From IMG/VR virus record IMGVR_UViG_3300045988_149840, positions 1 through 45,249 of that record: a DNA stretch of 45,249 bases; one strand, 5' to 3'. Origin of the DNA: a virus. Positions 718-2,271 of the stretch are shown here, in pieces. A program made the translations under genes and the position numbers. Under the pieces are notes generated by a model. It did not search any database. It worked only from the letters and a program-made list of their open reading frames with translations, and was not told the DNA's origin. The stretch's first letter is position 1. The number at the start of each line of letters is the position of its first letter.

Positions 718-2255
718 TTCATCGAAAATCAGCGCGGAAACCCCTGCATTCATGCTGGGGAGGAAGCGCCGCCTCCTTTCTAAGTTCTGTTAAGTAGGTG
801 GTTCGAGGTTCCAGCAGTCTCAACTTTTTGTAGCTGATACCGGCGGAAATCCGCGTACCGTCAAGCCGGCGCACATCAAAACTTCCCGAAGTCCTTCGCC
901 CAAAGATGAACGCCTCTTCACCTTTGCAAATCACCTTGTCGAAAAGACGAAAGCCTTTGACTTCGTAGGGAGCCTGGTTCTTCTTTCTCAATCCGCCTTT
1001 CAGAATTGACAGCTTGTGAATCTGCCGATTGTGCTTTCGGGTTTGCTTTTGAAAGAAAAAGCCCTCCAGGCGCTTTGCACCAAGGTTGTCCGCAATGCAG
1101 TACGCGTCTGCACAGTGGCTCTTTGCGATCCCGTGTGAGATGCGCTTATGCTTGGTGAGATAACCGTAGGTGTTGCGAACACTGAGTTCTGGGTGAGCCT
1201 TTTTCAAACGTTCAAAGAACGTCCAACGCATGATTCCCATGAAGGTTTCCGCTTTGAACGACTTGCCTCGCTTGACTTTGAGCTTGATCTCGCCGCGGTG
1301 CAATGCCTTGTGACAGGTCTCACACAGCGTGATGAGATTGTTCGGCGCATCGCCCCCGATTCGACGGCTCTCAATGTGGTGAACATTGAGTATCGGATCT
1401 TTGGACTTCCCGCGGCAGTGCTGACAAACGTGTCTGTCCCGGAAAAGCACATATTCGCGCACGTTCCAGAAACCGAGTTGTTCACCTCGCTGATAGTCGA
1501 TGCCCTCGACATGCGGATTTTTGATTTTCTGAATGTCAAAAGCTGCCGTTTCGACGGTGATTGCAGCCACAGGTAAAAGCCGCATGACTGCTTCCACGCG
1601 AGACGTGTGCGCCGCTATGCGGTTTTCCACTGAAGGAGCAAGCCAGCCCTCGCGCTTGCTTGCCACCCGGTTGTCGAAACGAGGCGCACGGTAGCGCGTC
1701 TTGCGGCCGCGGCGAGAGCGGCGCAGGGCAAGACGGGCAGACAAAAGATCCGTGATGTCTTGACGCAGTTCGACTTGCGAAGCATAGAGTTCGGCCTTTT
1801 CGGTTGTAGCCGAAAGACCAATGTGCTTGTAGCCTGCATCTACGCCAAGCGTCACAGACTGCTTTGCTTCGCCCGTTGCGATCGTGAGTTGAATCGTAAA
1901 AGGCGTGCGTCTTTTGACGATTGCTTTCTTCTCTTTGAGAAGCAGTCTTGCTTTTGCCGATGAGCATGGCATCTGGGGCTGTCCTCGTTTGTTTAAAACA
2001 AATACTCTCAAGATTTGTCTCCTCGGTCTTGCGACCGGTTGTAATCCTTCGCCAATGTTGGAAGGGGTTTACTTGTTCGCGGCACCGCTCCTACCTCTCA
2101 GAGCTTTTAACCGCCGACCGCAGAGCGCGGAACTAGGATCTACATTCCGCGATGCCTGTGTATTCCCAACCAACGTAGTCCGCCTTTTGGGCGGTCTGAG
2201 GCTAGTCAACCAAGGCTTTTATCAAGCCTCTGCCTTTAGGCAGGGGTTGTTGACC
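718..2255 (-). mobile_element. IscB-only (TnpA-less) IS200/IS605-type OMEGA element, copy 1. The span is defined by similarity to copy 2.
   Basis: Nucleotide similarity to 43321..44857 begins at the stop codon and ends abruptly at 2255. The flanks are unrelated. No Y1 transposase gene is present. Confidence 0.6.
719..2011 (-). CDS. iscB: IscB RNA-guided nuclease (RuvC with inserted HNH), copy 1
   Basis: Motifs seen:
- PLMP-type N-terminus (NKRGQPQMPCSSAKARLLLKEKKA).
- RuvC-I TLGVDAGYKHIGLS.
- RuvC-II ITVETAAFD.
- HNH CQHCRG..NVHHIESRRIGGDAPNNLITLCETCH.
- RuvC-III KSHCADAYC.

The start is TTG at 2011-2009, 7 nt after GAGGAG. About 80 percent of residues match copy 2 by eye. Confidence 0.95.
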   Translation of the reverse strand: MRVFVLNKRGQPQMPCSSAKARLLLKEKKAIVKRRTPFTIQLTIATGEAKQSVTLGVDAGYKHIGLSATTEKAELYASQVELRQDITDLLSARLALRRSRRGRKTRYRAPRFDNRVASKREGWLAPSVENRIAAHTSRVEAVMRLLPVAAITVETAAFDIQKIKNPHVEGIDYQRGEQLGFWNVREYVLFRDRHVCQHCRGKSKDPILNVHHIESRRIGGDAPNNLITLCETCHKALHRGEIKLKVKRGKSFKAETFMGIMRWTFFERLKKAHPELSVRNTYGYLTKHKRISHGIAKSHCADAYCIADNLGAKRLEGFFFQKQTRKHNRQIHKLSILKGGLRKKNQAPYEVKGFRLFDKVICKGEEAFIFGRRTSGSFDVRRLDGTRISAGISYKKLRLLEPRTTYLTELRKEAALPPQHECRGFRADFR

Positions 2256-2271
2256 ACATTTCACGGCCCGA
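2012..2271 (-). ncRNA. omega RNA (HEARO-like) of IscB copy 1: scaffold 2012..2255 plus predicted 5' guide about 2256..2271
   Basis: It lies immediately upstream of iscB on the same strand. It shares a 103-nt identical core (2081-2183) with copy 2, and four peripheral stems show compensatory changes. An outer GUCAAC/GUUGAC helix marks the start of the scaffold. The predicted guide is UCGGGCCGUGAAAUGU. Confidence 0.85.

Follow-up and report, generated by a model that had tools for sequence, protein, structure and literature searches.

Does a phage that carries an RNA-guided nuclease in its early operon put that nuclease to use, or does it merely host a selfish insertion? The question is raised by a 45,249-nucleotide (nt) stretch of viral DNA, IMG/VR record IMGVR_UViG_3300045988_149840, which we call the window (the whole stretch, at its full length). 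A first-pass annotation, made from the letters alone, had recognised at 719-2271 of this window an iscB gene preceded by its omega-RNA, together an OMEGA module (obligate mobile element-guided activity), and had raised the possibility that the phage uses it as its own nuclease. Our results indicate that the locus is probably one (copy 1) of a pair of non-autonomous IS200/IS605-family (ISC-type) transposons, each made up of an omega-RNA and iscB, in the early leftward operon, and that it is a selfish passenger rather than an adopted phage function. The proposal of a phage-adopted nuclease found no support: the same element occurs in unrelated phages, sister phages carry empty and decayed alleles, and an antirepressor gene was disrupted by the insertion.

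An iscB gene and its predicted omega-RNA

The gene at 719-2011 of the minus strand, a 430-amino-acid (aa) open reading frame (ORF), had been assigned to IscB from motifs read by eye, and profile searches bear this out. IscB-1 matches the Pfam families RRXRR (E 1.2e-61, residues 3-176) and HNH (E 2.2e-08, residues 196-239), as well as the NCBIfam equivalog guided_IscB ('RNA-guided endonuclease IscB'; 347.5 bits, the cut-off being 175; E 6e-104). PHROGs places it in phrog_119, a large IscB-like family labelled only 'HNH endonuclease'. Moreover, it aligns with the solved IscB structures 7xht, 7utn and 11hr (E ~1e-37 to 1e-39) with all the catalytic motifs in register. The catalytic residues are present on alignment to the OgeuIscB structures: D58 (RuvC-I), E154 (RuvC-II) and H299/D302 (RuvC-III) in the RuvC domain, and H211/H212, N225 and the CHKALH histidines in the HNH domain, all of them identical in both copies. 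The C-terminal region, residues ~336-430, where a domain that interacts with the target-adjacent motif (TAM) would be expected, is kept among relatives and gives no sequence alignment to the solved IscBs.

Compared with its relatives, IscB-1 has a ratio of nonsynonymous to synonymous divergence (dN/dS) of 0.09-0.18, with dS up to ~1.5. Such low values point to long-term purifying selection for a working protein in this lineage. Since dN/dS is equally low (0.12-0.18) between copies taken from unrelated genomes, this selection would act on the element itself. As judged from its sequence, IscB-1 is thus an intact IscB under purifying selection. Two other identities for the protein were discarded. 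A nuclease-dead, TldR-like RNA-guided regulator was rejected because the catalytic residues are all intact in both copies, and a remnant of a Type II CRISPR-Cas9 system was rejected because a repeat search of the whole window revealed no CRISPR-like array and the Cas9d model scores 14.5 bits against a cut-off of 375.

Upstream of iscB-1, the structured non-coding leader that carries the ribosome-binding site (RBS) and leads to the TTG start, estimated at first as about 245 nt, measures 243 nt. The Rfam HEARO model RF02033 matches 2038-2254 of the minus strand over its full length (model positions 1-211 of 211) with 128.9 bits, the gathering score being 83, and this match ends 27 nt ahead of the start codon in both copies. 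Between the match and the Shine-Dalgarno (SD) sequence lies a terminal hairpin (Table 1), which in copy 2 reads CGGCC-TTCG-GGCCG, a compensatory change with respect to copy 1. Because this hairpin covaries between the copies it should be part of the RNA. The copy-1 RNA is accordingly a predicted full-length HEARO/omega-RNA.

Element ends, target motif and family

The ends of the element were located by comparison of junctions. The IMG/VR contigs L001 and L005 (L numbers are our designations of the loci compared) match the window over 2254..719 alone, with ~91% nt identity and unrelated flanks, and in DNA copy 1 and copy 2 resemble each other from precisely the first base of the scaffold (GTCAAC) up to the end of iscB and no further. 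When seven junctions were set side by side, all of them started with GTCAAY, ATGA then followed, and the 5' flanks were unrelated. The ends are exact, GTCAAC at the right end (RE) and ...TTTTYG at the left end (LE).

ATGA lies directly 3' of the element in all 23 insertions of the subfamily analysed, with A or T in the following position in 19 of them. Since ATGAA is also found in the empty site described below, it belongs to the flank, outside the element, and for this reason we rejected an element that would end at the IscB stop codon (...ATGA). Note that the stop codon of iscB-1, TGA (721-719), comes from the flanking ATGA and is therefore not part of the element, while that of iscB-2 is composed of the TG of the element and the A of ATGA. 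On the top (TnpA) strand the target reads TTCAT, 5' of the LE, which is the same as the GstIscB TAM measured for ISGst5. From the 23 insertion flanks and this identity we take the TAM to be ATGAW.

The element lacks terminal inverted repeats and has a sub-terminal hairpin at either end; it is inserted beside a fixed short motif, in a single orientation and with no target-site duplication, and multiple copies with differing flanks occur within genomes, all of which are traits of the IS200/IS605 insertion sequences (IS). In support of this, occupied and empty alleles of the copy-2 site (site 2) differ by exactly the element. The 3'-end hairpin follows the pattern CCCC-N4-YRAA-N4-GGGG, with many compensatory stem changes among the 23 independent insertions. 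On the top strand both the LE hairpin (-10.6 kcal/mol with RNA parameters) and the RE hairpin fold, and the former is presumed to be the TnpA binding site. The terminal hairpins, the ATGA(W) motif and the lack of duplication thus place the element in the IS200/IS605 family.

The absence of a transposase gene noticed in the first reading is confirmed. Four Pfam-validated Y1_Tnp probes detected no Y1 TnpA in the window by tblastn (best E = 0.33), and the same four probes detected none in the 161 viral loci searched. Among cellular IscB loci, only 3 of 80 have a TnpA close by, and the one beside IscB in a metagenome-assembled genome (MAG) of Sutterella (L175) looks truncated (Y1_Tnp positions 2-84 of 121). 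Lacking tnpA, the element is non-autonomous; this is usual for iscB, for which linkage to tnpA is only ~1.5% (PMC10055086), so the family membership stands.

Two copies of different origin

Copy 2 lies 1.1 kb downstream of copy 1 on the circular genome. IscB-1 and IscB-2 share 81% protein identity, with dS ~1.5 and dN/dS ~0.09, which argues for two separately acquired lineages and against a recent internal duplication. Our IMG/VR search recovered at least 188 relatives. L266:2759-3454 (contig IMGVR_UViG_3300045988_154346) is a copy-2-type element that is 97-99% nt identical and sits on an unrelated phage contig, which suggests that the copy-2 lineage has moved between phages very recently. This element has an internal iscB deletion of ~835 nt and is located between the SD sequence AAAGGAG and an ATG.

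Empty, decayed and rearranged alleles in sister phages

Comparison with sister phages, of which L080 has an Erf 95% identical to that of the window, revealed several forms of both loci. Site 2 is empty in L080 (= L244), L161 and L242, the last being 99% identical to the window on the Erf side; the empty allele reads ...AATAGCA/ATGAAGGCC... in L080, L161, L242 and L244 (a slash marks the junction). At full length, L080 has ...GCTGAAAAATAGCA/ATGAAGGCC..., and the occupied site of the window is ...GCTGAAAAATAGCA(GTCAAC...GATTTTTG)ATGAAGGCC..., with the element in parentheses. In L243 (ERZ1664504.407, ~2955-3003) a 39-nt footprint is found at site 2, between the guide-2 flank and ATGAA. It corresponds to the first 39 nt of an element, that is, the RE hairpin, with copy-1-type sequence; by splitting the protospacer from the TAM it would make this allele resistant to IscB-2. 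Three sister contigs were absent from both our IscB scans of IMG/VR, which use short peptide patterns and so do not prove that IscB is absent.

The copy-1 locus of L080 carries a 315-nt mini-element (L080:4443-4757, contig IMGVR_UViG_3300045988_162154) that has lost iscB but keeps an intact scaffold (HEARO, 137 bits) and the final 67 nt of the element. This mini-element is a mosaic, its 5' part resembling copy 2 and its 3' part copy 1, and it adjoins the ATG of an intact 236-aa Bro-N/KilAC (Bro-N + ANT) gene. Its orphan omega-RNA could perhaps be loaded by an IscB provided in trans, from another phage or from the host. In the window, copy 1 has disrupted the Bro-N/KilAC antirepressor gene that is intact in L080, and its 3' junction falls on an ATGAA that lies out of frame within the L080-type bro gene. 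The 5' flank of copy 1 matches L081 over only ~37 nt, and in L081 this flank runs straight into ATGAA. Copy 1 therefore joins the flanks of two sister-phage types, most simply by recombination within or beside the elements.

The presence of the element in unrelated phages, its many copies in host genomes and the empty, deleted and footprint sites in sister phages together indicate that it is mobile. A pattern in which the insertion can be there, missing or decayed marks a selfish element and is not that of a function fixed in the phage. A gain for the carrier in competition between phages is conceivable.

Among the sister phages, the slot that separates the first early gene from a 58-aa gene (start 599) is hypervariable. 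It holds the intact antirepressor in L080 (4758-5471), an unrelated cassette of small genes in L081 (387-860), and IscB-1 plus the 44-nt bro remnant in the window. The patches shared in this slot are as short as ~37 nt, and IscB elements may serve there as portable homology for mosaicism.

Predicted guides and their targets

In the first-pass annotation the 16-nt guide of copy 1 was the reverse complement of 2256-2271, which is one base out of register. The L081 sequence and six other GTCAAY insertions fix the register at 2255, so guide 1 is 2270-2255, CGGGCCGUGAAAUGUG. Guide 2 corresponds to 44872-44857, AUGCUGAAAAAUAGCA. In the window each guide is followed by GTCAAC, not by ATGA, and no self-target with a TAM was found in the window for either guide at up to 3 mismatches. 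Having neither a TAM beside the guides nor any other self-target, the phage would be immune to its own nucleases.

Competitor-phage genomes had been suggested as a place to look for guide matches, and sister phages do contain them. Guide 2 followed by ATGAA is intact and exact in L080, L161 and L242. Guide 1 followed by ATGAA is present in L081 with one mismatch, a T-to-C change that would give an rU:dG wobble. An exact search of IMG/VR for guide 1 with either junction returned nothing, the L081 target being found only with one mismatch allowed and among the loci compared here. Note that the flanks of site 2 are 88-99% identical between the window and its empty-site relatives.

Insertion in front of start codons

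The position of the target motif relative to genes was also analysed. An ORF of 50 codons or more starts at the ATG of the flanking ATGA in 17 of the 23 insertions, compared with 32% of the other same-strand ATGA sites in the same loci (binomial p = 5e-5; the loci were window 718-722 and 43321-43325, L001-L005, L080, L163-L221 and L266). Many of these ORFs have clear native N-termini, such as a lipoprotein signal peptide or the TatD-like MMLIDTHSHFG, and the reconstructed pre-insertion sites often have an SD-like tract 4-9 nt upstream. This IS subfamily thus tends to insert between the RBS and the ATG of a co-oriented gene.

Since the IscB ORF runs to the last base of the element, its stop codon overlaps the target ATGA. 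This overlap suggests translational coupling, in which ribosomes would re-initiate on the downstream gene with little polarity. If true, re-initiation would soften the insertions and help the element to survive in operons, including a phage early operon. Neither 'start codon' nor 'stop codon' occurs in the text of the Meers preprint, and our literature search (IscB, start codon, translational coupling) found nothing relevant.

The phage genome and its early region

The window belongs to a tailed phage, as seen from its terminase, portal/adaptor, major head and tail proteins. Its ends show an exact 55-nt overlap (1-55 = 45195-45249), a typical assembler leftover on a circular contig, and the genome is therefore circular, with 45,194 bp. 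Plain joining of the window ends was rejected, as it breaks the frame of the 161-aa pentapeptide-repeat gene; the 55-nt overlap accounts for the break. This gene crosses the window ends (150..1 plus 45194..44859, minus strand), and the apparent 60-aa ORF at 44859-45041 is the C-terminus of its product.

On the minus strand, the order is a helix-turn-helix-like 98-aa gene, a strong terminator, a sigma-70-like promoter, the acidic 70-aa gene, guide 1 and element 1, followed by the Bro-N/KilAC remnant, small genes, the 161-aa pentapeptide-repeat gene, guide 2 and element 2, and finally a terminator-like hairpin, Erf, SSB and a Mu Gam-like protein (Table 1). As had been proposed, the module lies in sense orientation in the early leftward operon, downstream of the 70-aa gene and of a consensus match to a sigma-70-like promoter (2692-2664), which is a candidate outside source of the transcript containing guide 1 and the scaffold. 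The 70-aa protein, which matches no Pfam or PHROG family, is kept in the sister phage L080. The Erf/SSB/Gam-like module could repair IscB-induced breaks, a tie between the two that we infer.

Table 1. Features of the two IscB elements and of their surroundings in the window
Feature	Position	Strand	Evidence
Element 1, complete non-autonomous IS605-family IscB element, 1532 nt (RE 2254, LE 723)	723..2254	-	Junction comparison
Omega-RNA (HEARO) scaffold 1	2024..2254	-	Rfam RF02033 and terminal hairpin
RE sub-terminal hairpin, within scaffold start	2227-2246	-	Resembles LE hairpin
Terminal GNRA hairpin CGGTC-GCAA-GACCG	2024-2037	-	Between HEARO match and SD GAGGAG
iscB-1 ORF, 430 aa, TTG start, SD GAGGAG	719..2011	-	ORF list
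LE sub-terminal hairpin (CCCCAGCATGAATGCAGGGG), within iscB 3' end	741..760	-	23 insertions, compensatory stem changes
ATGAA target/TAM motif beside element 1	718..722	-	Flank, reverse complement of TTCAT
Guide 1, 16 nt of flank directly 5' of element (CGGGCCGTGAAATGTG)	2255..2270	-	Boundary from seven GTCAAY junctions and L081
Bro-N/KilAC antirepressor gene remnant, 44 nt, at copy-1 junction	679..722	-	Match to L080 4906-4955
Acidic 70-aa protein gene, co-oriented, upstream of element 1	2404..2616	-	ORF list
Sigma-70-like promoter TTGACG-17-AATACT, upstream of 70-aa gene	2664..2692	-	Consensus scan only
Strong terminator, just upstream of sigma-70-like promoter	2753-2734	-	
Guide 2 (ATGCTGAAAAATAGCA), last codons and TAG stop of 161-aa pentapeptide-repeat gene	44857..44872	-	
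Element 2, 1531 nt	43326..44856	-	Base-exact empty site in L080
Omega-RNA scaffold 2	44627-44856	-	HEARO match 44641-44856, 137.9 bits, full model length
iscB-2 ORF	43325-44614	-	Pfam RRXRR and HNH
LE hairpin of element 2	43344-43363	-	
ATGAA target/TAM beside element 2 (first A completes IscB-2 TGA stop)	43321..43325	-	Empty sites
Intrinsic-terminator-like hairpin and T-run between element 2 and erf	43295..43320	-	Folding, -14.6 kcal/mol
Erf, SSB and Mu Gam-like recombination module, directly downstream of copy 2	41697..43261	-	PHROG and Pfam matches

The hairpin at 43320-43295 is already present in the empty-site phages L080, L161 and L242; a consensus terminator scan did not list it, and folding supports it. 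Another hairpin, 712-690, was rejected as an RNA structure or terminator, as it is leftover bro coding sequence. No integrase was found among ten ORFs searched in the 33-41 kb and 4-8 kb regions. In GenBank, megablast with the structural region gave no match, and blastn with the left end matched, apart from pentapeptide-repeat noise, nothing but IscB segments of ~69% identity in faecal phage contigs that lack annotation, with no annotated close relative.

Several other features of the genome were recorded. A 43-nt GC-rich hairpin sequence (TTGACATCCTCCCCCG...CGGGGGAGGATGTCAA) occurs twice, at 37179-37221 and 40924-40966, 3.7 kb apart; the pair is 89% identical as a direct repeat and shows 98% complementarity as an inverted repeat, and it brackets a region with a Rha-like regulator and a PAPS-reductase-like gene. 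The 119-aa ORF 40869-41228 (minus strand) matches the PHROG 'BstA abortive infection system, replication inhibitor' (E 4e-19) with the N-terminal part only. After the tail genes comes a single ORF of 2445 aa (26348-33685, plus strand), a very great length for a phage of 45 kb. Seven tandem 21-nt repeats (CTGCTGCGGAGACGGCGCAAT) at 20064-20252 encode a 7-residue repeat within ORF 19673-20551, which adjoins a tail-fibre-like gene (18765-19673).

The nearest cellular IscBs, with 72-92% aa identity, all come from gut Sutterellaceae (Parasutterella, Sutterella, Duodenibacillus and Candidatus Aphodousia), and multiple copies per genome are frequent, Duodenibacillus massiliensis having at least 10 loci and a canine Sutterella MAG at least 5. 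The G+C content of the phage (~53%), its sigma-70-type promoter and its strong SD sequences fit a host of this family. Thus, the host is likely to be a gut Sutterellaceae bacterium, and the elements are likely to have been captured from the IS pool of the host, with host TnpA acting in trans. In a check for prophages and hosts, none of the flanks of the cellular loci resembled the window.

A selfish passenger or a phage function?

How would such an element persist in phages? We infer the following steps from established OMEGA biology. Read-through from the phage early promoter would give an RNA in which ~16 nt of flank, the guide, are fused to the scaffold. IscB would bind this guide RNA and cut DNA in which the guide sequence is directly followed by ATGAW. 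The phage's own copy would be immune, the element parting the protospacer from the TAM, and the insertion-free alleles would be cut, either after TnpA excision or in a co-infecting or resident sister phage. The break would then be repaired off the IscB-positive genome, plausibly by the adjacent Erf/SSB/Gam-like module, and the element would be copied in (homing), a repair that can drag flanking markers along. Transposition to new sites would require Y1 TnpA supplied in trans by IS200/IS605 elements of the host. In support of this scheme, site 2 is polymorphic among close phages and the target is intact in the empty allele; taken together, the intact, deleted, orphan-RNA, footprint and empty alleles describe the life cycle expected of a homing-type selfish element.

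It is possible, and we propose it tentatively as something short of probable, that phage-borne IscB/omega-RNA elements serve as gene drives, or RNA-guided homing endonucleases, between sister phages that co-infect or superinfect. If so, the two sites would behave differently. At site 2, where both flanks are 88-99% identical, repair of an IscB-2 cut should copy the element in through the Erf/SSB/Gam-like module. At site 1, the mosaic flanks would hinder conversion, so that the likelier result of a cut would be loss of the competitor or an enforced exchange of flanking modules. L243-type footprints would then be cleavage-resistant alleles.

The same observations have to be weighed against other explanations. 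That the phage has domesticated IscB and its omega-RNA as a weapon, kept to destroy sister phages or resident prophages or to cut the host chromosome, appears unlikely to us. It would account for two intact copies under purifying selection, both sense-oriented in the early operon, and for the protospacer-plus-TAM matches of both guides in sister phages; moreover, as the copy-1 flanks are too mosaic for easy gene conversion, cleavage there would mainly kill the competitor. However, the guides are mere insertion flanks, as in any IscB element, with no sign of selection on them, both insertions are absent from the closest sister phages, decayed copies are common and copy 1 destroyed a phage gene, while purifying selection is equally strong in unrelated contexts, as expected if it acts on the element. 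Rather improbable, too, is an inert passenger drawn from the host IS pool, intact only because it arrived recently and idle during infection. The insertion is indeed recent, L242 being empty yet 99% identical on one flank, and many relatives are already degraded, but a dN/dS of 0.09-0.18 over a dS of up to ~1.5 speaks for long-term selection for a working protein, the sense placement downstream of an early promoter gives the transcription that an omega-RNA needs, and GstIscB, with the same TAM, is active (PMC10055086). Finally, the label 'HNH endonuclease' of phrog_119, and the fact that free-standing HNH genes are common in phages, might suggest an ordinary HNH homing endonuclease with a protein-recognised target, the structured region being a mere 5' UTR. 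We regard this as exceedingly improbable: the protein, with its split RuvC domain, is an IscB equivalog in full, a full-length HEARO (129 bits) lies upstream and the scaffold starts at the very base where the element does, and the HEARO, guided_IscB and structure matches refute a protein-guided enzyme.

Our preferred reading, a selfish element that spreads among phages, also has points against it. That one small phage genome holds two copies, both intact and selected, could be a sign that the phage benefits. The guide RNA and its cleavage activity are predictions from sequence, the promoter is a consensus match, and the guide length of 16 nt is taken over from characterised IscBs, that is, assumed. 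The mismatch in the L081 target of guide 1 is TAM-proximal. No sister phage has both flanks of copy 1 as a single contiguous empty site, and because these flanks are mosaic, clean homing of copy 1 would be inefficient. The host assignment is drawn entirely from IscB similarity, G+C and promoter style, and no active TnpA was found in a confirmed host, the single TnpA of the Sutterella MAG looking truncated.

Relation to known OMEGA systems

The closest parallel is ISGst5 of Geobacillus stearothermophilus (Meers et al. 2023). In IscB elements the omega-RNA scaffold starts at the RE and the guide is the outside flank, so transcription must enter from outside, which explains the strong bias of iscB for co-oriented upstream genes (PMC10055086). 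The elements of the window share with ISGst5 the scaffold starting at the RE, the guide in the outside 5' flank, the lack of tnpA in cis, the need for outside co-oriented transcription and TTCAT 5' of the LE (ATGAA when read along the IscB strand). GstIscB, whose TAM is TTCAT, is active and is inactivated by D58A/H209A/H210A (PMC10055086); compared by published features, not by sequence, IscB-1 has the same D58 and a corresponding HH pair (H211/H212 here, H209/H210 there). Unlike ISGst5, the elements described here reside in a phage genome, as two diverged copies 1.1 kb apart, and their insertion-free targets are in sister phages rather than in a sister chromosome. With OgeuIscB (7utn, 7xht, 8csz) IscB-1 shares the domain order, the catalytic residues (phmmer E ~1e-37) and the HEARO-type class of omega-RNA. 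It differs in having 430 rather than 496 aa, with a shorter arginine-rich linker and ~95 C-terminal aa that remain unaligned by sequence, and in its TAM, ATGAW as deduced here, compared with NWRRNA (PMC12660989).

The biochemistry of IscB and omega-RNA, their homing role, the sharing of the TAM with TnpA and the usual lack of tnpA are already published. IscB in viral contigs was already reported in 2022, and the object itself is ordinary: in the passages available to us, Goltsman et al. 2022 (PMC9755519) state that more than 16% of HEARO-encoding fragments are viral or prophage-derived, and the present locus is one such case. What the window adds to those passages are the insertion-site alleles, the empty sites and the sister-phage targets. 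A 2026 review (PMC13565253) treats co-infected phages as a target in theory for 'transposon non-restorative homing', for which the experimental support comes from plasmids, namely an IS605 TnpB gene drive (Mears et al. 2025, as cited in PMC13565253), and notes that cleavage by classical phage homing endonucleases can mainly kill the competitor. Our literature search found no paper on OMEGA homing into co-infecting phages. The behaviour predicted here, cutting the allele that lacks the gene, copying the gene in and co-converting the flanks, resembles that of the T-even enzymes SegF, SegG and MobE and of the plasmid TnpB drive. Unlike in SegF, SegG and MobE, the target would be recognised by an RNA guide plus a TAM, and self and non-self would be set by the insertion itself.

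The value of this locus lies in a natural allelic series within one small clade of gut phages: an intact element, empty sites with protospacer and TAM, an orphan RNA, an internal deletion and a footprint. This series makes the theoretical OMEGA non-restorative homing into co-infecting phages directly testable, and it suggests that the mosaicism of phage early regions is due in part to IscB elements. Moreover, start-codon targeting with a stop codon supplied by the TAM, if general, would explain the published co-orientation bias of iscB and would show how an IS can live inside operons.

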